Assembly: GCA_964576115.1 (NCBI GenBank)
Contig: CAZNUA010000043.1
Span: forward strand, 1 to 29,984
Length of the DNA: 29,984 nt
Reading direction: 5' to 3'
From: an uncultured Gemmatimonadota bacterium
Lineage (GTDB): Bacteria; Blakebacterota; Blakebacteria; Blakebacterales; Blakebacteraceae
The translations under genes and the position numbers were made by a program. Positions 2,611 to 29,984 of this stretch are shown in pieces (the stretch's first letter is position 1; every line of letters begins with the position of its first letter). The notes under the pieces were generated by a model. The model had not been told where the DNA came from and did no database searches. It was given only the letters and a program-made list of their open reading frames with translations.

Positions 2611-3591
2611 TCAGCCGCCGTTGAACGACTTCTGCTCTTCGAGAAGGAGATTCACGAACTGGCCCCGGCTGTTCACACCGACCTTTCGGTAGAGACGATA
2701 GATATGGTTCTTCACGGTATGGATCGAGATGAAGAGCAGATCCTCGATTTCCTTGTTGCTCTTGCCCTGTACGATCAGCTCGGCGATCTCGCGCTCGCGC
2801 TGCGAGAGGTCATAGCGGGCACAAAACGCATCGAGCAGAGCCGGATCGTCGATCGAGACACCGTTGTTGTTGCCGGTTCCCGGCATGGACGGCAGGTGCC
2901 GGCGCAGCCAGAAGAAAGCCCCGAGGTTGAGAGCGGGCAGCAGCAGGAGAGAGCTCCAGATACGGATATGTTCGGGGATGAGACCGACCAGAAAAAGAGC
3001 CAGGAAGAGCCCGCCATAGATCTGCCCGAAGGCCCGGTTGCGCCGGTTCTCCGGGCTCTCATCGGCGCCGGGCCGGCTGCGCCGCACAAGGATCGCCAGA
3101 GGGGTGATGAAGCCGACGAAGAGAACGAGCGAGAGCAGGGAGAGTATGACGTGGATCAGATCGGCGGGCAGGCGGTGGGTTGACATGAGGTACCCCGCCA
3201 CGACCAGCGCCAGGGCGAACAGCGCGACCGCCGCGCCGGCGATCAGGTCCAGACGGGGAGCGGGGCGGATGCCGAGCAGACGCAGGACGCAGCGGAAGAG
3301 GGTCCAGGCCATGCCGACCAGGGCGATCTGGGTCACCGCCGAGAGGATCAGGCAGAGGGCCGTCGGCTCCTCCGCCATCAGACCGCCGAAGATATTGGCA
3401 GCGGTATAGATGTTGGTGAAACCGGCCAGGGTGTGAAGATTATAGACGATCAGGTATGATATCAGGGGCCGCAGCAGCTCGGGATCGCGGCCCTCGCGTG
3501 CCCGCAGGGCGGTCAGAAGCGTGACCGCCCCGCAGAGCAACGCCAGGACGGTCGCGAAAACATAGATATGCGCCGTGGTCGCTTCGTTCAC
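2611..3591 (-). CDS. Polytopic membrane protein with C-terminal LuxR/FixJ-type HTH DNA-binding domain (membrane-tethered one-component regulator)
   Basis: 326 aa. About 7 to 8 hydrophobic helices in the first ~230 residues, then a canonical LuxR HTH (LSQREREIAELIVQGKSNKEIEDLLFISIHTVKNHIYRLYRKVGVNSRGQ). The start codon is GTG, with a GGGGTGA SD about 7 nt upstream. Confidence 0.75.
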   Translation of the reverse strand: MNEATTAHIYVFATVLALLCGAVTLLTALRAREGRDPELLRPLISYLIVYNLHTLAGFTNIYTAANIFGGLMAEEPTALCLILSAVTQIALVGMAWTLFRCVLRLLGIRPAPRLDLIAGAAVALFALALVVAGYLMSTHRLPADLIHVILSLLSLVLFVGFITPLAILVRRSRPGADESPENRRNRAFGQIYGGLFLALFLVGLIPEHIRIWSSLLLLPALNLGAFFWLRRHLPSMPGTGNNNGVSIDDPALLDAFCARYDLSQREREIAELIVQGKSNKEIEDLLFISIHTVKNHIYRLYRKVGVNSRGQFVNLLLEEQKSFNGG

Positions 3592-3681: not shown

Positions 3682-5001
3682 TCAATCGGACAGAACCGTC
3701 CGGACCGCCGTCACGGTGCGGGCCACGTCCTCCTCGGTATGGGCCAGCGAGGCAACCGAGTGCAGGGCCGCCGAGGGACTCATGTAGATTCCATGGGCGA
3801 ACAGATCGAGCGCCAGCCGCTGGTAGCGGGGACGATCGACGAAGGTGCAGTACTCGCGGAAGTCGGTGATCTCGGGCCGCCCGGTGAAGAGAATCTGCAG
3901 CATCGGCCCCACTCCCTGGGCGATCGCCGGAGTGCCTGTCTCGGCAAAGACGCCATTGAGTCCCTCGCGCAACGCCTCGCCGATTAACCAGGTATGCCGG
4001 TAGACCGCTCCGTCGTCGGCCAACAGAGTGCTCAGATTGGCCCGGGCGGCGAACATGCCGGCCCGCGAAGCGTTCTGGGTGCCGTAGTGCAGTACTCCGC
4101 CCCACTCGAGGGCATTCATGATTTCGGCCGGGCCCATGAAGGCGGCCACCGGCAGGCCCGCCCCCAGCCCCTTGCCCATGGTGACGAGGTCGGCGTCGAC
4201 ACCGTAGAGTTCCTGACAGCCTCCCGGTCCGATCCGGCAGCCGGTGACCGTCTCGTCGAGAACGAGCAGGATGTTCTCGGCCCGGGTGAGCTCGCGCACC
4301 TGCTGCAGGTAGCCTTCGCGGGGCGGGATCACACCCATGTTGGCCATGATGCCTTCGGTGATGACGGCTGCAATCTGACCCCGCTCGTTCGCGACCGCCC
4401 GTTCCAGGGCGTCGATGTCGTTCCATGGTACGACGATCGTATCCTCGAGTGCCCGCCGGTTCAGACCCGAAGAATCGGGGATCTTGACCGGATCGTTGCG
4501 GTGCCCCAGGCTGGCGGGGAGCTGGGGATGGGCGGTCACGAGGTAGTCGTCATACCAGCCGTGATAGTGCCCCTCGAACTTGATGAACTTCGGCCGCCCG
4601 GTATACCCGCGCACCAGCCGGACCGCAGCCATGGTGGCTTCGGTCCCTGTATTGGCGAAGCGGACCTTCTCGGCTCCCGGCACGGCCCCGCAGAGCAACT
4701 CGGCCACCTCCACCTCGACTTCGGTGGCGGCGGCGAAGAGGGTTCCAGTCTCGGCCGCCGCCGTGATCGCTTCGACGATGACCGGGTGGGCGTGCCCGAG
4801 AGGCAGGGCCCCGTAGGCCATCATCCAGTCGAGGTAGCGGTTGCCGTCGGCATCGGTGATACAGGCTCCCTCCCCCTTCTCGATGAAAAGCGGATAGGCG
4901 CCGTAGTTGGCCGGGCCGCGCGAGGGTGAGCTGCCGCCCTCGACCATGACCTGCAGGGCCCGGTCAAAGAGGGCGCGCGATCGTTCGGTGGAATGAGACA
5001 T
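3682..5001 (-). CDS. Class III PLP-dependent aminotransferase, glutamate-1-semialdehyde 2,1-aminomutase (HemL)-like family
   Basis: 439 aa. HemL-like motifs: LVLDETVTGCRIGPGG, PLP-lysine context DLVTMGKGLGAGLPVAAFMG, YGTQNASRAGMFAARANL. ATG start with an AAGGA SD 8 nt upstream. Whether it is a true hemL or a paralog with another substrate cannot be decided from sequence alone. Confidence 0.85.
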   Translation of the reverse strand: MSHSTERSRALFDRALQVMVEGGSSPSRGPANYGAYPLFIEKGEGACITDADGNRYLDWMMAYGALPLGHAHPVIVEAITAAAETGTLFAAATEVEVEVAELLCGAVPGAEKVRFANTGTEATMAAVRLVRGYTGRPKFIKFEGHYHGWYDDYLVTAHPQLPASLGHRNDPVKIPDSSGLNRRALEDTIVVPWNDIDALERAVANERGQIAAVITEGIMANMGVIPPREGYLQQVRELTRAENILLVLDETVTGCRIGPGGCQELYGVDADLVTMGKGLGAGLPVAAFMGPAEIMNALEWGGVLHYGTQNASRAGMFAARANLSTLLADDGAVYRHTWLIGEALREGLNGVFAETGTPAIAQGVGPMLQILFTGRPEITDFREYCTFVDRPRYQRLALDLFAHGIYMSPSAALHSVASLAHTEEDVARTVTAVRTVLSD

Positions 5002-5058: not shown

Positions 5059-6189
5059 TCAGAGGGTCACTCCCAGACCGGCGGCGTATTCCCGGAAGCG
5101 TGCCATCAGCTCACCGGCCCGCGCTTCGGTATCCTCCGGCCTGAGCCTGCGACAGTCATAGCCGAGTTCTTCGCGCATGATTCCGGCCGTCGAGTCGGTG
5201 AAGACCGCCGTACCGTCCGCTTCTATGCGTTCGATCCCGTCGAAGCGGTGCGAGTCCTCGTTCATCCGTACGGCCTCTTCATGGGGCAGGTCCGGGATCG
5301 GATGAAGTTCGATCCTGCCCCGGCCGATGCTGACCGGATATCCGCCGGCCAGACCGCCGGGGGCCGGCAGGTGGGTCAGGGTTCCCGGTCCGGCGAAGAG
5401 GGCCCGTATCAGGCCCAGGAACGAGCCGGCCGTAAAGGTGTTCCAGGCCGGTCCCCCCGGCAGGGCGCAGGGGGAAAAGAGGAGTTCGTCCACTGCGACC
5501 TCACGGGTCACATCCCGACCGTCGTGTTCGACGCGCAGATAGTACGGCGGCACATCTCCCTCGAACCGGCTGCCCGTGAACACGGCTTTCTGCAGGGCGT
5601 GGTGGGCGACCATGAGTACCCGCACCTCTTCGAGAGGCGAGCCGAGTTCACGGGCCGCGAGCCAGCGCACCTTGGTGACGTTCTCGTCGATATTCCCGAT
5701 CCCGGCCGCTGGAGCCAGCCCGATCCGTCCCAGCATGCAGTTGACAACATCGGGAAAGGGCGCCGTCAGGCATAGTCCCTGCCAGTCGGCTTCGGCCAGA
5801 GCCTGCATGAGGTGGAAAGTCAGGGTGAAATTGATCGGCAGCCAGGCTCCGAAACGGGCCCGGGCCAGGCGCTCGCGGTTCTCAACGGGGAGCAGATCGA
5901 GCAGCCACCAGGTCTGCAGCGAGGCGGTCGAGAGAATCAGATCGGGATCGATACGTTCGATGAGTTCGACGACAGCCGCGTGATCGCGCAGATCGAGCGG
6001 TTCGAAGGCCAGGTCGGGGTCGGCACCGCGGGCCAGGGCGGCCAGCCGGGCCAGCCGGCAGCGGTCTTCGGCCCCTGAAGAGGCCAGGTCGCAGGCGACG
6101 ATACGACCGGGGAGCGGATCGGCGGCCAGCAGATCGAGGATCGCTCCCCCGAGGTGACCCACCCCAATCAGAAGAATGGTCGGTTTCAT
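5059..6189 (-). CDS. Saccharopine-dehydrogenase-like NAD(P)-binding oxidoreductase
   Basis: 376 aa. N-terminal Rossmann motif ILLIGVGHLGGAILDLL, followed by the architecture of the Sacchrp_dh_NADP family. No obvious SD. A TATGAT sits about 8 nt upstream of the ATG, so the gene may be leaderless or poorly coupled. Confidence 0.75.
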   Translation of the reverse strand: MKPTILLIGVGHLGGAILDLLAADPLPGRIVACDLASSGAEDRCRLARLAALARGADPDLAFEPLDLRDHAAVVELIERIDPDLILSTASLQTWWLLDLLPVENRERLARARFGAWLPINFTLTFHLMQALAEADWQGLCLTAPFPDVVNCMLGRIGLAPAAGIGNIDENVTKVRWLAARELGSPLEEVRVLMVAHHALQKAVFTGSRFEGDVPPYYLRVEHDGRDVTREVAVDELLFSPCALPGGPAWNTFTAGSFLGLIRALFAGPGTLTHLPAPGGLAGGYPVSIGRGRIELHPIPDLPHEEAVRMNEDSHRFDGIERIEADGTAVFTDSTAGIMREELGYDCRRLRPEDTEARAGELMARFREYAAGLGVTL

Positions 6190-6247: not shown

Positions 6248-6823
6248 TCAGGCGCAGACAGGCGGATCGTGTTCCCGGGCGAGGAGAAGGTCGCGCAGAG
6301 CGGCCCGGGCGTTGTGCAGGCGGCTGGCCACCGTGCCGGCGGGGATGTTCAGTACGGCCGCGATTTCGCTGTAATCGAGTTCCTCGATATCCTTCAGGAT
6401 CAGGATCTCGCGATGAAGGGCCCCGAGGCGGTTCAGGGCCTGCCAGAGATGTTCGCGGATTTCGGCCTCGATCAGGGCCCGGTCGGGCGCCGGGCCGGGA
6501 TCGGGCAGAACGGTCAGCGGGGCTGAGGTCCAGGTGCGTTCCCCTTCGCGTCCATTGCGGGAGCGGAGCCGGTCGAGGTAAAGGTTGCGGGCGATCATGA
6601 AGAGCCAGGGGACAAGCGGCCGGTCGGAACAGTAGAGGTGCAGGCGGCGGTAGGCCCGAATAAAAGTGTCCTGGGTCAGATCGCGGGCTTCGTCGGCATC
6701 ACCAGTGAGCCGGTAGAAGTACCCGTACAGACGCCCTTCGTAGGCACGCACGATCGGTTCATAAGCCGCGCCCTCCCCCGCCCGGCACCGTTCGAGCAGG
6801 CTCCGCTCCTCATCCCGGCTCAT
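6248..6823 (-). CDS. ECF-type RNA polymerase sigma-70 family factor (sigma-24 subfamily)
   Basis: 191 aa with region 2 (YEGRLYGYFYRLTGDADEARDLTQDTFIRAYRRLHLY) and region 4 (LDYSEIAAVLNIPAGTVASRLHNARAALRDLL). Its ATG overlaps the stop of the upstream SPFH gene by 1 nt (TGATG). Confidence 0.85.
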   Translation of the reverse strand: MSRDEERSLLERCRAGEGAAYEPIVRAYEGRLYGYFYRLTGDADEARDLTQDTFIRAYRRLHLYCSDRPLVPWLFMIARNLYLDRLRSRNGREGERTWTSAPLTVLPDPGPAPDRALIEAEIREHLWQALNRLGALHREILILKDIEELDYSEIAAVLNIPAGTVASRLHNARAALRDLLLAREHDPPVCA

Positions 6824-19126: not shown

Positions 19127-21610
19127 TCACTCGTCCCGCAACGTGATCACCGGATCCACCCGGGCGGCGCGCAGGGCCGGCACCGCATTGGCCAGACCGG
19201 CGATGACGAAGAGGACGAGCAGGGCCAGGGCATACACGGGCAGGTGCAGGGCCCCGACCTCGAAGAGCACTCCCGACAGCAGACGAGCCGAGAGAGCGGC
19301 CCCGAGCAGACCGATCGCCCCCCCGATAAAAGCCAGCAGCAGGCCCCGGCCGACGACATGGCGCACGATGCCGCCTTTCGATGACCCCAAAGCGATCCGG
19401 ATCCCGATCTCGCGGTGCTGCTGTCCCGTCGAATAGGCAATGATACCGTACAGACCCACTGCAGCCAGCAGCAGAGCCAGCAGACCCAGCCCTCCGATCA
19501 GACCGGTCCCGGTCTGAATCGGGGAGAGGCTGAAGCGGGCGCTGTCGCGAATAGTGCCGACCTCGAAGAAGGAGATGGCCGGCTCCACCTCCCTGATGTC
19601 GGTCGCCAACCGGTCTACCAGGGGCGCGGCCTCGCCCCTGACCCTGACCATGATCGTTCCGGCCCGGGTTGGATACTGGGAGCGGCAGTAATGGACCATC
19701 GGCCGGGGTGCTTCGGTCACCGAGCGTACCTTGTAGTCGGCGCAAATCCCGATGACCTCGTAGGACGTCCCGGTCAGGCCGTCATTCCAGATCGTTTTCC
19801 CGACTGCACTCTCGCCGGGCCAGTAACGCCGGGCGAAGGCGCTGCTGACGACCACCACGCCGGGAGTGTCTTCGGTATCGGAGCGTCGAAACGACCGGCC
19901 GTTCAGGATCGGCACCCCGACGGTCTCGAAGTAGTCTTCGTCGGCTATGGTGATATCCTCCAGGTAGGGATCGTCCTCGGGACTCTGCTGGTGACCTTCC
20001 AGATAGAGATCGCGCGACCAGATGTTGAAAGAAAGAGGGGCCCGGGCTGTCACCGAGACCGCTTCCACGTCCGGCCGGCTGATGAGGATCTCCCGGAGGT
20101 GTTCAAAGAGCTGCTTGGCCCCTTCGGCATCGTACCCGATCATCTCGAGGCTGGTGCTGAAGACCGCCACCCGGTCGAGGTCCACCCCCGGATCCACGTC
20201 GCGGGCGTTGGCCAGACTCACGGCCATCAGGCCGGCCGCCACCAGCAGGAGGGTGGAAACAGCCAGCTGACCGACGACCAGGACGGTGCGCAGGCGTCCT
20301 CCCCGGCCCGGTCGAGAACCGAGGGCGGACATCTCTTTGAGATACGGCGTCAGATCGAGCCGGGCGGTCTGAAGAGCGGGCGCGAGACCGAACACGATTC
20401 CACTCACAGCCGTTGCCAGCAGGGCAAAAAGAAAAACCCGGCCGTCCATGACCAGCGCCATATCGATGCTGACGGTGAGCTGGGGCGGCTGCAGGACCGC
20501 GAGCAGCTGCACCAGCCAGACCGCCATCAGCAGCCCGGCCGCACCGCCCAGGACCGCCAGCAGGAGACTCTCGGTCAGCAGCTGGCGCATGATCCGTCGC
20601 GGGCCGGCCCCCAGGGCCAGGCGCACGGCGATCTCACGCCGGCGTCCGGCGGCCCGGGCCAGCAGCATGCCGGCAACATTGGCGCAGGCCACGAGCAGAA
20701 CCAGGCCTACCAGCCCGAGCAGGATCGCCGAAGCTCCGGAGACGACCGGATCGAGGGCGGGATGGATGCGCACGCTGCCGGCCGGCAGTACCCGCGCCTC
20801 CCGACCCTCGTTCGAGCCGGGATAGTCCTCGGCCAGAACCCCCATGATCGTTCCCAGTTCGGCCCGGACCGACTCGATGGCGACTCCTTCGGCCATCCGG
20901 CCGACCATGAACAGCCAGCGATTGCCCCGGCGTTCCATTCGGGTCTCGCCCGGCGAGGGTACGGTGTCGATCAGACCGCCCGGGTCCACCACCTCGGCCA
21001 TCATGGTCGGAATCCACATGGCCGCCCGCACGCTCGGGAAGCGGCCCCGGAATTCGGGCGGCGCCACGCCGATGATCGTGAAGGGGGTGCCGTTGAGGGT
21101 CAGCGTCTGCCCCGCTACATCGGGTGAACCCGCGAATTCCTCCTGCCAGTAGTCATAGCCGAGAACCGCCACCGGGTGAGCGCCGGGAGCCTCGTTCTCG
21201 GCCGGGGTGAACTCCCGCCCCAGAGCCATGGGGATACCCAGCAGGTCGAAATAATTATCGGTCACGATCTCGCCGGTCAGCAGTTCCGCCCGGCCTTCCC
21301 GGGTGACGTTGACGAACATCCCGGAATATCCGGCCAGGTCCTCGAGGGTGGTGCTCATCCGACGCAGATCGTGCCAGTCGGGGAGCGAGCTGGTGGAGTG
21401 TTCGATATTCAGCGAGGTGGTGTAGACCGATACCAGCCGGTCGGGATCGCGGGCCGGGAGCGGCTGCAGAAGCAGGGTGTTGATGACCGTGAACAGAGCC
21501 GTATTGGCCCCGATGCCGACCGCCAGGGTCAGCACCGCCACAATGGTGAACAGGGGCTGGGTGCGCAACATGCGTACCGCAAAGCGCAGGTCGGCGATCA
21601 GATCGTACAC
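19127..21610 (-). CDS. MacB/FtsX-like ABC-transporter permease (duplicated 'ADOP' type), orphan (no adjacent ATPase)
   Basis: 827 aa. GTG start (MYDLIADLRFAVRMLRTQPLFTIVAVL) with a GAGAGG SD. Two periplasmic domains and two FtsX modules. C-terminus AVPALRAARVDPVITLRDE. The antisense 570-aa ORF 19415..21127 is a shadow. Confidence 0.85.
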   Translation of the reverse strand: MYDLIADLRFAVRMLRTQPLFTIVAVLTLAVGIGANTALFTVINTLLLQPLPARDPDRLVSVYTTSLNIEHSTSSLPDWHDLRRMSTTLEDLAGYSGMFVNVTREGRAELLTGEIVTDNYFDLLGIPMALGREFTPAENEAPGAHPVAVLGYDYWQEEFAGSPDVAGQTLTLNGTPFTIIGVAPPEFRGRFPSVRAAMWIPTMMAEVVDPGGLIDTVPSPGETRMERRGNRWLFMVGRMAEGVAIESVRAELGTIMGVLAEDYPGSNEGREARVLPAGSVRIHPALDPVVSGASAILLGLVGLVLLVACANVAGMLLARAAGRRREIAVRLALGAGPRRIMRQLLTESLLLAVLGGAAGLLMAVWLVQLLAVLQPPQLTVSIDMALVMDGRVFLFALLATAVSGIVFGLAPALQTARLDLTPYLKEMSALGSRPGRGGRLRTVLVVGQLAVSTLLLVAAGLMAVSLANARDVDPGVDLDRVAVFSTSLEMIGYDAEGAKQLFEHLREILISRPDVEAVSVTARAPLSFNIWSRDLYLEGHQQSPEDDPYLEDITIADEDYFETVGVPILNGRSFRRSDTEDTPGVVVVSSAFARRYWPGESAVGKTIWNDGLTGTSYEVIGICADYKVRSVTEAPRPMVHYCRSQYPTRAGTIMVRVRGEAAPLVDRLATDIREVEPAISFFEVGTIRDSARFSLSPIQTGTGLIGGLGLLALLLAAVGLYGIIAYSTGQQHREIGIRIALGSSKGGIVRHVVGRGLLLAFIGGAIGLLGAALSARLLSGVLFEVGALHLPVYALALLVLFVIAGLANAVPALRAARVDPVITLRDE

Positions 21611-21655
21611 GGCTGCCTCTCAGTCCGGAGAAGAGGGCCCCCACGAGGTCGCTTC

Positions 21656-21684
21656 CATTACATGACCCGCCCGTTCGCCTGTCA
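21656..21684 (-). promoter_or_regulatory. Near-consensus sigma70-type promoter for permease 2: TTGACA-17-TGTAAT (minus strand)
   Basis: The minus strand reads cattgacaggcgaacgggcgggtcatgtaatggaag. Perfect -35, 17-nt spacer, 5/6 -10. About 45 nt upstream of the GTG start. Confidence 0.4.
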
Positions 21685-21868
21685 ATGTTCCCCCGTGATA
21701 TAAACCTGAGAAACCTCTGGTTCAACCCGATCCGCCATCGCGCGGCATCGCGAGAGAATACATGTTCCGCCCCTGACCGCCCGGGAGTACCATGCCCGCA
21801 GCAGGGATATCCCGGTTGCCGGTGTCATCTCGGGCGACGTCATAGAGGGTACGAGGAGGGTCAGAGAT

Positions 21869-23089
21869 ATGATCGACCGATCGCGCCCACCACGTATCGG
21901 CCGGAGCGAGCGAATCTGCACCTGCCTGGTCTTTCTCCTCGGTCTGCTCTGGTCGGCACCGCTGCCCGCACAGGACCCCCCGGTTCTGCCTCCCGAGCGG
22001 GTCGAGGCCCTGACCGCCCGGCTGCAGGCGTATCTCGATTCGGTTCACGCCGCCGGTTCCTTCCCCGGCGCCAACGTTGCCGTGCGCTTGCCCGACGGCA
22101 CTCTGATCGCGATCTCGACCGGGGTTCGGGATCGGGATAGCGGTGTTCCCCTCACCCCCGCCGACCGTATGCCGGCGGGTAGTGTCGGCAAGACCTTTTT
22201 CGGGGCGGTGGCGCTGCAGCTCGTATCCGAAGGCGCCCTCGACCTCGAGGCACCGATCAGCCGGTATCTGGGCACCGAGGCATGGTTCGAACGTCTGCCG
22301 AATGCGCCCGGTGTAACCGTTCGCCAGCTCATGAACCACTCGAGTGGGATCGTGCGTTACGAGTTCAATCCCCGGTTTCTGGAAGACCTGTTGGCCGACC
22401 CCTACCGTGTCTGGCGTCCCGAAGAGCAGCTCGCCTATCTCTTCGATTCCGAGGCCCCCTTTGCAGCCGGTCAAGGCTGGACCTATTCGGACACCAACTA
22501 CATCCTCCTGGCCATGATCGTGGAGCGGATTACGAGCGCCCCGGCCTATGACGAGATCCAGCGTCGGATCCTGAGTCCGCTCGGGCTTCTCGACACCATC
22601 CCCTCCGACCGGCCCGAGATCCCCCGGCTGGTCCAGGGGTACGCCGGCGACGGCAATCCCTTCGGTGGCCGGGACGAGATGCTCGACGAGCAGGGTCGGA
22701 TGGCCATCAATCCCGGTTTCGAGTGGGGAGGCGGCGGTTTCGCCTCGACCGCCCGCGAGCTGGCTCGCTGGACGGCCGACATCTACGAGGGCCGGGCCTG
22801 GGATCCCGCCCTGATCGAGGAGGTGACCACCGGGGTGCCGGCGCGCGAACTCGGCCGGGGGGTGGAGTACGGCCTGACCACGATCATCCGCAACCTGCCG
22901 GCGGGCCGGATATGGGGTCACAGCGGGTACTTCCCCGGCTATCTGACCGAGACGTATTACTTCCCGGAGTACGGAATCAGCGTGGCGGTTCAGGTCAATA
23001 CCAGTGTGGCCCGGGCGGTGGGACGGAGTCTGCTCCGGATCGTCAACGATCTGGCCGCCCTGACGATCGCTGAATTTCCGGAGAGATGA
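21869..23089 (+). CDS. Beta-lactamase-family serine hydrolase (class C / esterase EstB-like / PBP-like), secreted
   Basis: 406 aa. AGGAGG SD 9 nt upstream. Signal peptide. SxxK (AGSVGKTF), YxN (YSDTNY) and KTG-like (GHSGY) motifs. The antisense ORF 21722..22921 is a shadow. Confidence 0.8.
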   Translation: MIDRSRPPRIGRSERICTCLVFLLGLLWSAPLPAQDPPVLPPERVEALTARLQAYLDSVHAAGSFPGANVAVRLPDGTLIAISTGVRDRDSGVPLTPADRMPAGSVGKTFFGAVALQLVSEGALDLEAPISRYLGTEAWFERLPNAPGVTVRQLMNHSSGIVRYEFNPRFLEDLLADPYRVWRPEEQLAYLFDSEAPFAAGQGWTYSDTNYILLAMIVERITSAPAYDEIQRRILSPLGLLDTIPSDRPEIPRLVQGYAGDGNPFGGRDEMLDEQGRMAINPGFEWGGGGFASTARELARWTADIYEGRAWDPALIEEVTTGVPARELGRGVEYGLTTIIRNLPAGRIWGHSGYFPGYLTETYYFPEYGISVAVQVNTSVARAVGRSLLRIVNDLAALTIAEFPER

Positions 23090-23459
23090 CGATCGGATCG
23101 GTCGGGGGGTGTTCGATCGCCCGCTTCAGAGTCCGATCGATCCGGGTCCAGGAGGTATAGGCGGCGTCGGGCAGCAGGGCCCGAACCCGTTCGGTTTGCT
23201 CGAGGTCGCCCTCGATGAATACCAGGGGGATATGGCGGGTACCGGCATTGTGCCGCATGGCCACGCCCACATCGCGGCCCTGAGAGGGGGCCCGAATCAG
23301 ATCGATGATACAGGCTGCGGGTGGATCAGCGCTCATCTCCTTGAGCGAGGGTTGCCCCTCGAAGGGATGCGTATCCACCTCGTATCCGGAAGCTTGTAGT
23401 TCCCCGGCCCGTTTTTCGGCGGCAGTCGTATCCCAGATGACCAATCTGACACGATACAT
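23043..23459 (-). CDS. Stand-alone receiver (CheY-like)-domain protein, degenerate (acidic pocket partly lost)
   Basis: About 139 aa from the ATG MYRVRLVIWDTT… with a GGGGGG SD. Receiver-like pattern RLVIWD…AACIIDLIRAPSQGRDVGVAMRH…IPLVFIEGD…LKRA. The 3' end overlaps the convergent beta-lactamase-family gene by about 47 nt. Confidence 0.5.
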   Translation of the reverse strand: MYRVRLVIWDTTAAEKRAGELQASGYEVDTHPFEGQPSLKEMSADPPAACIIDLIRAPSQGRDVGVAMRHNAGTRHIPLVFIEGDLEQTERVRALLPDAAYTSWTRIDRTLKRAIEHPPTDPIVISPEIQRSSGRPDR

Positions 23460-23566
23460 TGCCATTCCCCCCAACTGTGCCCATACCATTCGCTCTACCG
23501 GGCCAGTCTTTAGTACGGCCCGAAGAGTCGACTTGTTGCTGAAACCCGCTCCGGTATTGCGTCGTA

Positions 23567-23597
23567 TTGTCAGATACCTTAATGAATTAGGTATGAT
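23567..23597 (+). promoter_or_regulatory. PadR promoter/operator: TTGTCA-19-TATGAT with the inverted repeat ATACCT-N9-AGGTAT filling the spacer; GTATTG direct repeat just upstream
   Basis: AT-rich island cgtcgtattgtcagataccttaatgaattaggtatgatact, about 45 nt upstream of the PadR ATG. 6-bp perfect inverted arms. Classic autoregulatory layout. Confidence 0.45.
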
Positions 23598-23641
23598 ACT
23601 CCACGGCTTCAGCTGACTCGTGCATCCGGACGGGGGCGAAT

Positions 23642-23974
23642 ATGAGCGGCAGCGATATCTTTACCGGCACTCTCGACCTGCTGATCCTCAAGGCGGTGGC
23701 CCGCGAACCCCTGCACGGCTATGCCATCGGCCGCTGGATCAGGCAGCAGAGCCGGGAGACCCTGCAGATCGAGGAAGGCGCCCTGTATCCCGCCCTGCAC
23801 CGGCTTGAGGGCAAAGGCCTGCTGAGCAGCGACTGGGGCGCGAGCGAGACCGGCCGCCGGGCCAAGTTTTACGCTCTCACCCCCGCCGGGCGGACCGCCC
23901 TGGTCACCGATGAGGAGCGCTGGCTGGCTCACTCCGAGGCCGTACGCACCGTACTCCGGGGCGCGGAGTCCTGA
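23642..23974 (+). CDS. PadR-family transcriptional regulator
   Basis: 110 aa. LDLLILKAVAREPLHGYAIGRWIRQQS…EEGALYPALHRLEGKGLLSSDW…KFYALTPAGR is the canonical PadR winged HTH. GGGGG SD 6 nt upstream. Confidence 0.85.
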   Translation: MSGSDIFTGTLDLLILKAVAREPLHGYAIGRWIRQQSRETLQIEEGALYPALHRLEGKGLLSSDWGASETGRRAKFYALTPAGRTALVTDEERWLAHSEAVRTVLRGAES

Positions 23975-25899: not shown

Positions 25900-27069
25900 T
25901 CACTCCGGCCGCAGGTGCCGACGCACGAAGAGCCGTATCCCGAGAACGAAGAAGATGATCGTCAGGACCGCAATCCAGCCCAGTTCCCACGTCACCTCCC
26001 CCACCCCGGCGCCGTGGTTCATGATCTTGCCCAGGGCCGCCGTGGCGTGGGTGGTGGGCAGCAGATCGTTGATCGTCACGGTGTGCCCGGCCAGGGCGAA
26101 GAGGCGGGGTTCGGGCAGGGGGAAGAGACCGCCGGAAAAGAACATCAGGACGAAAAAGGGGAAGCAGCCCACCGTCATGAGATCGAAGATGGTGCGCAGC
26201 CAGGCCGCCACCAGCACGCCGATGGCCACGATCGAGAGGGCAGCGGCTACCGTGACGACCAGCGCGGCCGACAACGAAAAGGCGGCCCGGTAGCCGAGCG
26301 CTGCCGCGGTCAGCCAGGTCAGGCCGACCGCCGCCACTCCGAGTACGATCTGGACCAGACCGACCGAGACCAGCCACTCCCAGGCCGGCAGGGCCGCGAT
26401 GCGCAGGCGCACCAGGGTGCCCTTGTCCTTTTCTCTGATCAGCGAGGCAGCCGCAGTGAACATGAGCATCATCAGCGCCAGTACCAGCAGGCCCGGCACG
26501 TAGAGATCGAAATCGGAAAGCGAGCTGATCCCCCCTGTCGTCTGCGGATCGAGGAGGATGGGAATGTCCAGTTCCAGCACCCCGGCGGCGTACTCCCAGA
26601 CTGTCATGTCGCTCCAGACCGCGGCCATGAGGTAACCGGCATTGGCGGGATCGCCCCAGCTGCGAACCGTCACCGGTCCCGCCTGCTCGCCCCTGCGGTG
26701 GGCCTGCAGAGTGCGGGAAAAATCGGCCGGGATCTCGACCACCAGGTCGGCCTCCCGATCGCGCAGGGCGGCCCGGGCCGGACCGATCTCGTCGTAGGTA
26801 CGCAGGGTGAGCACCGTCCCGCCCTCGTCGGATTTCACCGCCTCGAGAGCCGCAATCAGTTCGTCGCCGCCCCTGAACTCAACGCCCCCCGGTCCGGACA
26901 CGGCGTCATCCCGGCTCACGACGGCGAGGGTGTACGAGGGGGTCATCTCCCCGAAGTAGAAATGCATCAGCACCACGAAGAAGGGAGCGAAAGCCAGCGT
27001 CATGCCGGCGATTTTCCAGTCGCGGAAGTTCTCGATCGCGGTCTTGTAGATCAGGCTCGCGAATCTCAT
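25900..27069 (-). CDS. ABC-2 type transporter permease
   Basis: 389 aa. TM1, a roughly 150-aa extracytoplasmic loop, then 5 C-terminal TM helices. ATGA overlap with the upstream ATPase gene. Confidence 0.8.
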   Translation of the reverse strand: MRFASLIYKTAIENFRDWKIAGMTLAFAPFFVVLMHFYFGEMTPSYTLAVVSRDDAVSGPGGVEFRGGDELIAALEAVKSDEGGTVLTLRTYDEIGPARAALRDREADLVVEIPADFSRTLQAHRRGEQAGPVTVRSWGDPANAGYLMAAVWSDMTVWEYAAGVLELDIPILLDPQTTGGISSLSDFDLYVPGLLVLALMMLMFTAAASLIREKDKGTLVRLRIAALPAWEWLVSVGLVQIVLGVAAVGLTWLTAAALGYRAAFSLSAALVVTVAAALSIVAIGVLVAAWLRTIFDLMTVGCFPFFVLMFFSGGLFPLPEPRLFALAGHTVTINDLLPTTHATAALGKIMNHGAGVGEVTWELGWIAVLTIIFFVLGIRLFVRRHLRPE

Positions 27070-28049
27070 TCCCGCAACCCCCGCCCCGTCAGCGCAATGA
27101 AGACGTCCTCGAGGGTCTTACGCCGCACGATCACCTCGCCGGGGATCAGACCCCGGGCCTGGAGCCGGTCGAGCAGGTCGGGCAGAACCCGGTGGACCTC
27201 GTGCCCCACCAGACGCAGTCGGCCGATGTGGGCCTCGAGCCCGGGGAAGGTCGGCTCGAGCTCGCGGCTTACCGCCCCGGCGTCATCGGCGCTCACCCCG
27301 GGCAATTCGATCTCGAGCAGGTCCCCTTCGCCGATGGTGTCCTTGAGCCGCTGCGGGGTGTCGAGCACGAGCAGGCGGCCGTGATCGATGATGGCGATCC
27401 GGTCGGCCAGACGGTCGGCTTCGTCCATGTCGTGGGTGGTCAGGATGACGGTCATCCCGCCCGCCAGGCCGCGCACGTACTCCCTGACCAGAACCCGGCT
27501 CTGGGGATCGAGCCCGGCCTGGGGTTCGTCGAGGACGAGAATCTCGGGAGAGTGCATCAGGGCCAGAGCGATGTTCAGCCGGCGCATCATACCGCCCGAG
27601 AGAGTTCCGGCCAGACGGTCGCTTTTTGCTTCCAGGCCGAGAATAGCGAGCAGTTCGGCCGCCCGGTCCCGGGCAGCCCGGGGGGCGAGGCCGTACATGT
27701 GGCCGGTAAACCGGCACTGTTCGGCGCAGGTGAGGTTCTCCCAGACGGAGATCTCCTGCGGGCAGAGCCCCAGGCGACGGCGCTCCTGTCCCGCCCGGGC
27801 CGTCAGGGAACGGCCGTTGAAACTGATCGTACCCGCGTCGGGTTCGAGCAGACCGCAGATCATGCTGATGGTGGTGGTCTTGCCCGCCCCGTTCGGTCCC
27901 AGGAAACCGAAAATTTCGCCGTGGCGGATCTCGAGGCTGAGATCATCGACGGCCACGATATCCCCGTAGGAACGGGCGAGCCCATCGAGTCTGAGAACGA
28001 TATCCTGCTCGCGGTCGGTCACCGGCGGTCTCCGGATCCGGGGCAGCAT
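27066..28049 (-). CDS. ABC transporter ATP-binding protein
   Basis: 327 aa. Walker A GPNGAGKTTT, signature LSGGMMRRLNIALAL, Walker B ILVLDEPQAGLD, H-loop TTHDMDEA. Confidence 0.9.
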   Translation of the reverse strand: MLPRIRRPPVTDREQDIVLRLDGLARSYGDIVAVDDLSLEIRHGEIFGFLGPNGAGKTTTISMICGLLEPDAGTISFNGRSLTARAGQERRRLGLCPQEISVWENLTCAEQCRFTGHMYGLAPRAARDRAAELLAILGLEAKSDRLAGTLSGGMMRRLNIALALMHSPEILVLDEPQAGLDPQSRVLVREYVRGLAGGMTVILTTHDMDEADRLADRIAIIDHGRLLVLDTPQRLKDTIGEGDLLEIELPGVSADDAGAVSRELEPTFPGLEAHIGRLRLVGHEVHRVLPDLLDRLQARGLIPGEVIVRRKTLEDVFIALTGRGLRE

Positions 28050-28251
28050 CCGTCATACAACCCCTGTCCTGCCCCTGGTGCCTGTCAGAGGGTGGGTACG
28101 GCATCACTCTCGGTACAGACGTTTGTCACCTGACATGACACTAGCAGGTACGGCGCGCGACGTCGCCTTCTTCACTGCCGGGTTCGATCACGCCCGTTCG
28201 GGTTCGAATCGCAGCGCTGTCCGCTCGCCACACCCAGTTCCCCGAATCACC

Positions 28252-29136
28252 TCAGAGTGAGTCCAGGAAAGCCCTCACCGTCTCCAGGTATTCGTCCCGG
28301 TAGATCTGCGGGGCAAGGTGACCGTATCCGGTCGGCAGGAGCGCCAGTTCGGAATCGGGCAGCGAAGCGGCCAGATCCCGGGAATCGGCATGAGAGGGAT
28401 CGTCCTCGCTCGAGACGATCAAGATCCGGCCGGGCCAGGTTGCGAACTCATCGGGGCGGTAGGCCCCGGCGGTATTGAATCCCCAGACCAGATCCAGCAG
28501 GCGGCCGATCCGCTCGCGGGTGAAACAGGTTGTCAGCCTGGCCGCCATCAGGGCGGCCGCAAAGCGCCGCCGGTCGAGCATGTCGGGGGGGATCTCCCGT
28601 TCGGTGCGTGAGAGCCGACCCAGCTTGCGTTTCATCAACGGCCGTACGAGCCCGAAGGGAATCCAGCGCAGCAGCAGACGGGCCCAGGGCCGGCACCGCT
28701 CGACCCGCGGGACCAGAGTGTTGGTCAGGACCGCGGCCTCGACCCTTTCGGCGCGGCGGCGCAAATACAGCTGGGCGAGGATGCCAGCCAGGGATTGGCC
28801 CATGAGAGTCACCCGGCCGATCCCGGCCTGGTCGAGAACCCGGTCGGTCCCCCGGCAGAGGCTCTCGGGATCGCGGAAGGGCGTGATGTCCACGACGACC
28901 ATTCGGCTGGCTGCCTCGAAGCCCAGAATGGTCTCATAGAGTATTTCGATTCCGCCCCATCCTCCGGCGAAGGTGAGCAGGCACCGCTCCCCTTCACCGC
29001 AGACGCAGTACGGGATCTCCAGGCTATCGACCGCGAGTACCCGTTCGTCATGACCGGCCAGGAAATCCTGGAAACGGGCCAATTCTTCAGGCCAGGCCTC
29101 AAAGAGGGTTTCGGGCAGATCGGGCCGCTGAATCAT
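28252..29136 (-). CDS. Alpha/beta-fold hydrolase
   Basis: 294 aa. Nucleophile elbow LMGQSLAG, acid SSEDD, His GYGHLAP. The start overlaps the TetR stop (ATGA). Confidence 0.75.
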   Translation of the reverse strand: MIQRPDLPETLFEAWPEELARFQDFLAGHDERVLAVDSLEIPYCVCGEGERCLLTFAGGWGGIEILYETILGFEAASRMVVVDITPFRDPESLCRGTDRVLDQAGIGRVTLMGQSLAGILAQLYLRRRAERVEAAVLTNTLVPRVERCRPWARLLLRWIPFGLVRPLMKRKLGRLSRTEREIPPDMLDRRRFAAALMAARLTTCFTRERIGRLLDLVWGFNTAGAYRPDEFATWPGRILIVSSEDDPSHADSRDLAASLPDSELALLPTGYGHLAPQIYRDEYLETVRAFLDSL

Positions 29137-29819
29137 CCGGCCCCTCCTTTCTCAACCGGTGCCGGGGAGACGAACCCGCGACGCAGGATATCGGCCAGCG
29201 CCTCGAGTTCGCTACGCAGAGTATCGACGGGGAGCGGAAAGAGCGGCCGTCCGGCCCGGACGTTGGCCTCGAAATCGAGGTCGTATGTCAGCTCCAGGAA
29301 GTCGAGGAAGCCGCTCTGGACCTGCAGCAGCACATATACCAGCTGTCCGGCGTCGACATCGTCCCTGATCGTCCCCTGCTCCTGTTGCTCGCGCAGGTGC
29401 CGGCCCAGAACCTCAAGGCCCCGCTTCAGGGTCTGCCGGGGCACGTCCCCCAGAACCACGTTGTCCGTCTCGTGGGTGATCCGGTACCCGAAGTAGCTCA
29501 GCAGGGGATAAGCATTGTCCTGCTCGACACAGGCCAGGAAGAACTCGACCCAGGTCTGGAGCAGATCGTCGGTTTCCCCGGCGAAGAACCGGTCGAAGAT
29601 ATTCAGGGTATACCCGGTGGTATATTCAATCAGGTATTCGTACAGTTCCCGCTTCGAGGCGAAGTAGCGGTAGAAACTCCCCTTGGCCAGACCGAGGGTC
29701 TCGATGATCCTGGTCAGGGAGGCATCCCGGTAATCGTGCCGGACGAATTCGTCCAGGCAGGTGTCGATGATCTCCCGCTGCCTCTGCGGACTCAGATTCA
29801 GGAACGTCTGCTGCGGCAT
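29133..29819 (-). CDS. TetR/AcrR-family transcriptional regulator
   Basis: The ORF-track start (29870) is a TTG lying inside the operator palindromes. The ATG at about 29819 (MPQQTFLNLSPQRQREIIDTCLDEF…) has a GAGG SD 6 nt upstream. HTH DASLTRIIETLGLAKGSFYRYFASKRELY. Confidence 0.85.
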   Translation of the reverse strand: MPQQTFLNLSPQRQREIIDTCLDEFVRHDYRDASLTRIIETLGLAKGSFYRYFASKRELYEYLIEYTTGYTLNIFDRFFAGETDDLLQTWVEFFLACVEQDNAYPLLSYFGYRITHETDNVVLGDVPRQTLKRGLEVLGRHLREQQEQGTIRDDVDAGQLVYVLLQVQSGFLDFLELTYDLDFEANVRAGRPLFPLPVDTLRSELEALADILRRGFVSPAPVEKGGAG

Positions 29820-29861
29820 GGCGGCCTCGCTCGAACCGGAAAGATGAATGAGGTTCGGTGT

Positions 29862-29891
29862 GCGACTCAAGAGTCGCGACTCATGAGTCGC
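29862..29891. promoter_or_regulatory. Two overlapping 16-bp palindromes GCGACTCAAGAGTCGC and GCGACTCATGAGTCGC (TetR-type operators) at about +1 to +30 of the TetR promoter
   Basis: The second palindrome is perfect. The first is perfect except for the central AA/TT. They share a GC and lie 14 bp centre to centre, immediately downstream of the -10 element. Confidence 0.55.
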
Positions 29892-29897
29892 TTCATG

Positions 29898-29926
29898 TTG
29901 ATACGCCCCTCACCCGCCACTGTCAA
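29898..29926 (-). promoter_or_regulatory. Candidate sigma70-type promoter of the TetR operon: TTGACA-17-TATCAA (minus strand)
   Basis: The minus strand reads attgacagtggcgggtgaggggcgtatcaacatgaagcgactcatgagtcgc. The operators start about 7 nt after the -10. Confidence 0.4.
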
Positions 29927-29930
29927 TCAT

Positions 29931-29984
29931 CTATTCCTCATCCTCCTTCTCTTCCTTCTCCTCCTTTTCCTCCTACTTACTATT
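29931..29984. repeat. About 55-nt uninterrupted polypyrimidine (CT-rich) tract on the plus strand; polypurine GGAGG/GAAGG repeats on the minus strand
   Basis: ctattcctcatcctccttctcttccttctcctccttttcctcctacttactatt is all C/T apart from 3 A. Highly atypical in a 68 % GC genome. It lies directly upstream of the TetR promoter's -35 and runs to the window edge. Confidence 0.6.

Follow-up and report, generated by a model that had tools for sequence, protein, structure and literature searches.

Predicted tandem operators of a TetR-family regulator at a probable autoregulated operon of an uncultured Gemmatimonadota bacterium

The window analysed here, a stretch of 29,984 nucleotides (nt) from an uncultured Gemmatimonadota bacterium (GenBank assembly GCA_964576115.1, contig CAZNUA010000043.1), carries near its end four minus-strand genes (25900..29926 with their promoter region) encoding a TetR-family regulator, an alpha/beta hydrolase, and the ATPase and permease of an ATP-binding cassette (ABC) transporter of the ABC-2 type. 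We consider it likely that this region is a locally autoregulated TetR-family operon, made up of the regulator, the serine hydrolase and probably the ABC-2 exporter, and governed by a double palindromic operator. It is very probable that the adjacent TetR has its operator in these tandem palindromes, a reading strongly supported by phylogenetic footprinting across phyla.

The candidate promoter of tetR is read on the minus strand. Its -35 hexamer, TTGACA (29921..29926), is separated by a spacer of 17 nt from a -10-like hexamer, TATCAA (29898..29903), which matches at four of six positions and is without the final T. Six nucleotides (CATGAA) then lead to the promoter-proximal palindrome O1, an exact palindrome of 16 bp (GCGACTCATGAGTCGC, 29876..29891, no strand assigned) in whose first bases transcription is predicted to start. 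The second 16-bp palindrome, O2 (GCGACTCTTGAGTCGC, 29862..29877, likewise without strand), shares a GC dinucleotide with O1, and the centres of the two are 14 bp apart. The initial annotation had described just this arrangement, a TTGACA-17-TATCAA promoter followed closely by two palindromes with a common GC, and it can be read in the sequence with the 6-nt distance given above. To a repeat finder, O1 and O2 together also form a direct repeat of 14 bp and a near-palindrome of 30 bp; within the latter, GCGAC/GTCGC half-sites occupy positions 1-5, 12-16, 15-19 and 26-30, making four half-sites. Chance occurrence of the palindromes was assessed with 100 dinucleotide-preserving shuffles; GCGACTCWWGAGTCGC has two exact matches in the window and none in the shuffled sequences.

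The evidence that ties the palindromes to the regulator comes from 81 independent genome loci, 80 of them fetched by TetR protein similarity alone and the last being the window's own contig (L001, the parent 142-kb metagenomic contig; the window ends inside the tetR upstream region). TetR orthologues are many and share 30-89% identity with the window protein; the loci belong to Gemmatimonadota, Aminicenantes, Bacteroidota, Ignavibacteria/Kapaibacteria, Anaerolineaceae (Chloroflexota), Firmicutes, Saccharibacteria and others. When these loci were scanned for GCGACY-N4-RGTCGC with up to one mismatch, counting the 200 nt upstream of the TetR start, the motif was present at 73 of them. In the 16.2 kb upstream of TetR there are 130 sites, and in the other 881 kb, all of it flanking DNA, there are 5. 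The earlier suggestion that the palindromes form a TetR operator lying over the transcription start agrees with this distribution, the 16-bp motif tracking orthologous TetR genes at a promoter-proximal position in many phyla.

Within the motif, the half-site bases are near-invariant and the central four nucleotides vary freely. Positions 6 and 11 show no base-pair covariation (CA in 59 sites, TA in 34, CG in 19 and TG in 18), and their commonest combination, C/A, is non-pairing. Near-invariant half-sites, a free centre and the lack of covariation together point to a site of protein recognition rather than a hairpin. A reading of GACTC/GAGTC as GANTC methylation sites of the CcrM/HinfI type was rejected because GANTC is not conserved in the orthologous operators, which often have GACCA or GACTT instead.

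The number and spacing of sites differ between loci. Two sites 14 bp apart, as in the window, occur in 28 of the 81 loci and in several phyla; 26 loci have two sites 32-35 bp apart, 3 have two sites 27-28 bp apart, 16 have one site and 8 have none. Several of the single-site loci carry a degenerate second site 14 bp downstream. Extra half-sites follow the tandem pair in L012 (~5912-5955, ...GAGTCGCAATCGGAAAGTCGC) and in L009 and L014 (~3366-3410, ...AGTCGCCTTCGCGAC), which suggests either that more than two dimers are bound there or that the operator is still evolving.

The position of the motif relative to the promoter is kept as well. All 11 close loci (nine distinct sequences) have TTGAC[AG], a spacer of 17 nt, a -10-like hexamer, a further 1-7 nt and then the operator pair. 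This conserved geometry supports the predicted tetR promoter despite its weak -10 hexamer, and leads one to expect transcription to start within the first bases of O1. The Bacteroidota loci are built differently, with two sites 32-35 bp apart, of which the upstream one lies over the -33 region. In 24 of the 29 loci whose sites are 27-35 bp apart, the sequence TAnnTTTG has as its last letter the first G of the downstream site, and in the Bacteroidota loci (L015-L086) this overlap is found ~30 nt upstream of the TetR start. TAnnTTTG is the -7 promoter box of Bacteroidota. Since the operator abuts this box, promoter occlusion would be kept in Bacteroidota despite their different promoter type. 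Hosts with either promoter type thus have the predicted operator on the promoter, which argues for repression by occlusion.

The regulator itself (29133..29819, minus strand; 228 aa) belongs to the TetR/AcrR family, with a PF00440 match of 40.3 bits at residues 17-62 (cut-off 24). Its start at ATG 29819 agrees with the MPxxTFxNL N-terminus of the orthologues; a TTG at 29870, taken as the start in a mechanical listing of open reading frames (ORFs), was rejected on the same comparison. The recognition helix AKGSFYRYF is invariant in 33 aligned orthologues. An AlphaFold2 (AF2) model with a predicted local distance difference test (pLDDT) value of 92 shows an all-helical two-domain fold of 11 helices, as expected of a TetR regulator whose C-terminal domain serves ligand binding and dimerisation; its top Foldseek matches are all TetR-family structures. 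PDB 3nrg is the closest (26% identity; template modelling (TM) score 0.75-0.78), followed by TM1030. No NCBIfam model or equivalog cut-off was reached by the protein, and no C-terminal family was detected in Pfam. A literature search found no description of a GCGACY-N4-RGTCGC operator or of this TetR subfamily.

From these features we infer the following mode of action. The sigma-70-type promoter TTGACA-17-TATCAA would drive tetR and the translationally coupled serine hydrolase gene, and probably also, by read-through, the DrrAB-like ABC-2 exporter downstream. TetR dimers, putatively two, would bind O1 and O2, both of the form GCGACY-N4-RGTCGC; the half-sites of each are spaced 11 bp centre to centre, the sites themselves 14 bp. 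The operators start 6 nt past the -10 hexamer and lie over the predicted transcription start, where binding would block RNA polymerase. A small, probably hydrophobic ligand would act at the C-terminal domain to release the repressor and so induce the operon.

A broader proposal, which we hold to be slightly less likely than not and put forward tentatively, is that the regulator represents a widespread uncharacterised TetR subfamily, recognised by the invariant AKGSFYRYF helix together with the near-invariant operator in at least seven phyla and down to ~30% identity. Such a subfamily would use two operator architectures, one in which sites overlap with a 14-bp period and one in which two sites flank the promoter, and would control genes for the handling of membranes or lipids, the shared theme being ABC-2 exporters, alpha/beta hydrolases, ICMT/PEMT-like methyltransferases and CPBP/Rce1-like proteases. 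Its members may then be sensors of one shared class of compounds, membrane-active or derived from lipids, and protein and operator may serve as a portable orthogonal pair.

The gene following tetR (28252..29136, minus strand) encodes an alpha/beta-fold serine hydrolase of 294 aa, which matches Abhydrolase_6 at 34.6 bits (cut-off 26.3) and Abhydrolase_1 at 26.3 bits (cut-off 25.8). The coupling of the two genes through ATGA, proposed at the outset, is seen at 29136-29133, where the tetR stop codon (29135-29133) overlaps the hydrolase ATG (29136-29134). The catalytic triad is intact, and the G113-Q-S115-L-A elbow, D245 and H273 are invariant in 26 homologues. The AF2 model (pLDDT 91) has 1506 PDB matches at E<=0.001, and the best of those listed are all alpha/beta hydrolases. 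These fold matches are spread about equally over esterases, an N-acyl homoserine lactone (AHL) lactonase, C-C hydrolases and dehalogenases, with a TM score of ~0.64 and identities of up to 21%. A sequence search of PDB gave no match to the hydrolase, and its NCBIfam scores lie far below the cut-offs; the model for the 3-oxoadipate enol-lactonase PcaD (TIGR02427), for instance, scores 31.2 bits against a cut-off of 255.85 and covers just residues 97-151. As the PDB sequence, NCBIfam and fold searches returned generic matches only, a specific function for the hydrolase was rejected, and the idea that an ester or lactone is hydrolysed and then exported has to be regarded as a guess.

Recurring neighbours of the hydrolase and of the regulator, namely PAP2, ICMT/PEMT and S9 esterase, weakly suggest lipid-like esters as substrates of the hydrolase. 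In L093 (2521-5839) a hydrolase orthologue of 47% identity is co-directional with genes for an SSF transporter, a 212-aa protein, a PAP2 lipid phosphatase and a TP_0789-like protein. ICMT/PEMT-like genes adjoin the hydrolase cluster in L092 and directly follow the TetR orthologue in L042 and L045. In L090 the hydrolase orthologue is preceded by a 70-aa ORF (3792-4004) that is a C-terminal TetR remnant, with 42% identity to residues 161-226, next to a DDE transposase/insertion sequence (IS) fragment; the regulator there has decayed, probably leaving the hydrolase constitutive.

The last two genes of the group encode a DrrA/NodI-like ABC ATPase (27066..28049, minus strand; ABC_tran 119 bits) and an ABC-2 permease of 389 aa (25900..27069, minus strand; ABC2_membrane_3 97 bits, cut-off 31.6; ABC2_membrane 54.8 bits, cut-off 26.9), joined by an ATGA overlap at 27069-27066. 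Pfam matches thus confirm all four gene identities first assigned, those of TetR, hydrolase, ATPase and ABC-2 permease. The ATPase starts at ATG 28049 or at GTG 28022, which is the choice of the gene callers and has GGAG 6 nt upstream. Its best NCBIfam model is TIGR01188 (drrA), at 274.9 bits against a cut-off of 312.45, and the permease scores 16.8 bits with the drrB model. Beyond its end, the permease gene faces a convergent gene for a class-V aminotransferase.

Several observations weigh against the proposed operon. A generic promoter scan of the window makes no call at TATCAA, with its absent final T, and the eight loci in which the operator motif was not found at up to one mismatch have to be set against the 73 that carry it. 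The hydrolase orthologue of L093, between the PAP2 and TP_0789-like genes, stands in a different operon without TetR. The remaining points concern the exporter. No operator lies upstream of the ABC pair, which is separated from the hydrolase gene by a spacer of 202-229 nt, and the pair is absent 3' of the hydrolase in every relative of less than 89% identity whose contig is long enough. The exporter may be an independent neighbour.

This last possibility can be stated as an alternative in its own right, in which tetR and the hydrolase gene alone form the regulated unit and the ABC pair is a separately transcribed neighbour outside the control of this TetR; we find it possible, if somewhat doubtful. 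The hydrolase follows TetR directly only in the nearest clade (L007, L008, L010-L013, L087, L089, L092 and the P0004 contig), and it is followed by the ABC pair only in the window and in L087, an 89% relative in which the TetR and hydrolase proteins differ from those of the window by 11-12% overall. The genes found after the hydrolase are different ones in L008, L010-L013, L089, L092 and the P0004 contig, and the spacer, besides having no operator, shows a break of identity between the window and L087 that suggests a recombination joint. The four genes nevertheless share one direction and are the only ones before the convergent aminotransferase gene, the spacer holds no promoter-like or terminator-like site that a scan could find, and ABC exporters lie directly after TetR in 39 of the 81 loci of the wider subfamily. 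In those more distant members the ATPase gene is followed by ABC-2 or FLQE3-type permeases, which leaves a link between regulator and exporter plausible in the window too. The initial description of the region as a self-contained four-gene unit therefore stands for the hydrolase, the conserved partner of TetR in the nearest clade, but not to the same extent for the ABC pair, which is found there only in the window and L087 and behind a spacer without an operator. Co-transcription and co-regulation of the exporter with tetR remain our prediction, qualified as above.

Elsewhere in the subfamily, the regulator is accompanied by Rce1/CPBP-like proteases, ICMT/PEMT-like methyltransferases, an MFS transporter, an amidohydrolase and another alpha/beta hydrolase. 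In a metagenome-assembled genome (MAG) of Bacteroidota (L036), besides the site upstream of tetR, the interval from the TetR stop to the ATPase start holds two perfect operators (~6651-6692), GCGACCACCTAGTCGC and GCGACCACCCAGTCGC, spaced 26 bp apart. The exporter of that lineage appears to be under its own operator-controlled promoter.

The spacer between the hydrolase and ABC genes (28050..28251, minus strand) contains no recognisable signal. Its reported length of 202 nt holds if the ATPase starts at ATG 28049, and becomes 229 nt with GTG 28022. An operator upstream of the ABC genes, for which a search had been recommended, was not found in 28050-28251 when the window was scanned with GCGACYNNNNRGTCGC at up to three mismatches. 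Comparison of the spacer and leader with Rfam at E<=1 gave nothing save a spurious match to a long non-coding RNA (lncRNA), and the fold z-score of the spacer, +0.62, is not unusual; an RNA element in spacer or leader was rejected on these grounds. The two small palindromes noticed earlier in the gap are indeed present, but their frequency fits chance, TGTCACCTGACA (28124-28135) being seen in 29 of 100 shuffles and GCGACGTCGC (28157-28166) in 10 of 100. The former is missing from L087. The latter was also rejected as an operator, its abutted half-sites not fitting the 11-bp half-site spacing, and it is uninformative because it falls in a block where window and L087 are 100% identical. This block (window 28142-28288) covers the end of the hydrolase gene and ~110 nt of the spacer, through GCGACGTCGC; beyond it the two sequences diverge abruptly for ~60 nt, within the 3' half of the spacer, which suggests a recombination joint or mosaic structure. 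The only hit of the window scan with one mismatch, GCGACTGGAAAATCGC at 27008-27023 on the minus strand, was rejected as a second operator; it lies ~45 nt inside the permease coding sequence, its equivalent in L087 has two mismatches, and it is probably due to chance.

Two further explanations would leave the palindromes without a role for this TetR, and we judge both to be very improbable. The palindromes might act as nucleic-acid hairpins, as part of an mRNA leader or attenuator or as a terminator on the other strand, instead of as a protein site. A terminator scan does flag 29876-29891 on the plus strand, with a GC-rich stem and a T-rich tail, and a transcription start at O1 would place the palindromes in the 5' leader; yet the stem bases are invariant in more than 70 loci without compensatory changes, with positions 6 and 11 mostly the non-pairing C/A, and the upstream site of Bacteroidota, where the sites bracket the promoter elements, would not be transcribed. 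The terminator was rejected, no plus-strand gene ending at 29876-29891 and the neighbouring PadR gene being transcribed away from it. The operator might equally belong to another regulator such as the PadR-family protein encoded ~330 bp away, whose gene lies divergently upstream with a duplicated MacB/FtsX permease on the parent contig, but the motif accompanies the TetR orthologue in 73 of the 81 loci amid widely differing other neighbours, and it is ~235 bp from the PadR start codon and directly on the tetR promoter.

The surroundings of the region on the parent contig show features of their own. The PadR gene and its duplicated MacB/FtsX permease gene, divergent from tetR and 330 bp away, are one instance of a repeated pairing of PadR genes with duplicated MacB_PCD/FtsX permeases of ~830-900 aa (L001 3434-9670 and 15846-20687, the latter at window ~19127-23974). 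At least three such permeases and at least three PadR genes occur within 20 kb, along with a second TetR and an MMPL transporter, and L007 has a PadR-permease fusion. The pattern resembles the expanded sets of PadR genes paired with orphan duplicated permeases in Acidobacteriota and Gemmatimonadota. In the interval that separates the divergent PadR and tetR genes, the tetR-sense strand carries a mostly purine tract of ~100 nt (GGAGGAGGAAGAG...AGGAGGAGAAGGAAGAGAAGGAGGATGAGG; periods 3, 9 and 18), which adjoins the -35 hexamer on its upstream side and runs from window 29927-29984 on into the parent contig (L001 9795-9895). At the same position L087 has just a short GGAGGAGGAAGA. The tract may have expanded by slippage, or may be DNA that is curved or prone to form triplexes.

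What is new here is the well-supported operator consensus for an uncharacterised TetR subfamily of many phyla; the operon itself is of a routine local repressor type, and the general view of TetR regulation is unchanged. The consensus lets the regulon be predicted in any genome that encodes a member of the subfamily, and, given an inducer, would provide a defined repressor-operator pair for biosensors and synthetic biology. Judging by the partner genes, the response may be to lipids or to membrane-active compounds.

Comparison with known systems places the individual parts more precisely. The exporter resembles those of the DrrAB/NodIJ type in that the ATPase is best matched by TIGR01188 drrA, the permease belongs to ABC2_membrane_3 and the two genes overlap in ATGA; it differs in that the scores lie below the curated subfamily cut-offs and in the length of the permease (389 aa), whose sequence reads as having a large insert after the first transmembrane segment and before the membrane core. 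The only solved structure that matches the regulator over its full length is 3nrg (Caur_2714 of Chloroflexus aurantiacus, a structural-genomics TetR; profile E 3.7e-28), although its identity is only 26%, and a literature search on 3NRG found nothing relevant and no functional data.

Boxes of similar design are bound by NemR (TAGACC-N4-GGTCTA) and RutR (TTGACCA-N2-TGGTCAA), both 16 bp long. The window operator has the same 16-bp palindrome geometry and the GACY-N4-RGTC core, whereas the outer bases differ, being GC in the window; the NemR and RutR proteins are remote structural relatives of the window TetR (TM ~0.5-0.6, 15-17% identity). QacR and CgmR load two dimers on one extended operator. 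Two TetR dimers also occupy one extended operator in the case of Rv0078 of M. tuberculosis, where the site is 21 bp and the dimers are staggered by 7 bp (PMC6016246). Like the operators of these three proteins, that of the window is larger than a single dimer site, with four half-sites in a 30-bp near-palindrome that overlaps the predicted start; unlike that of Rv0078, it consists of two complete 16-bp palindromes offset by 14 bp, from which a stoichiometry of two dimers would be expected.

Set beside the classical repressors, the window regulator is distinguished by its GCGACY-N4-RGTCGC operator and by a C-terminal domain, neither of which matches a characterised member. In its other features it is the same as TetR/tetA, QacR/qacA and AcrR/acrAB: an N-terminal helix-turn-helix (HTH) domain of PF00440, an all-helical fold, a palindromic operator over its own promoter and start, predicted autoregulation, and exporter and enzyme genes as neighbours.

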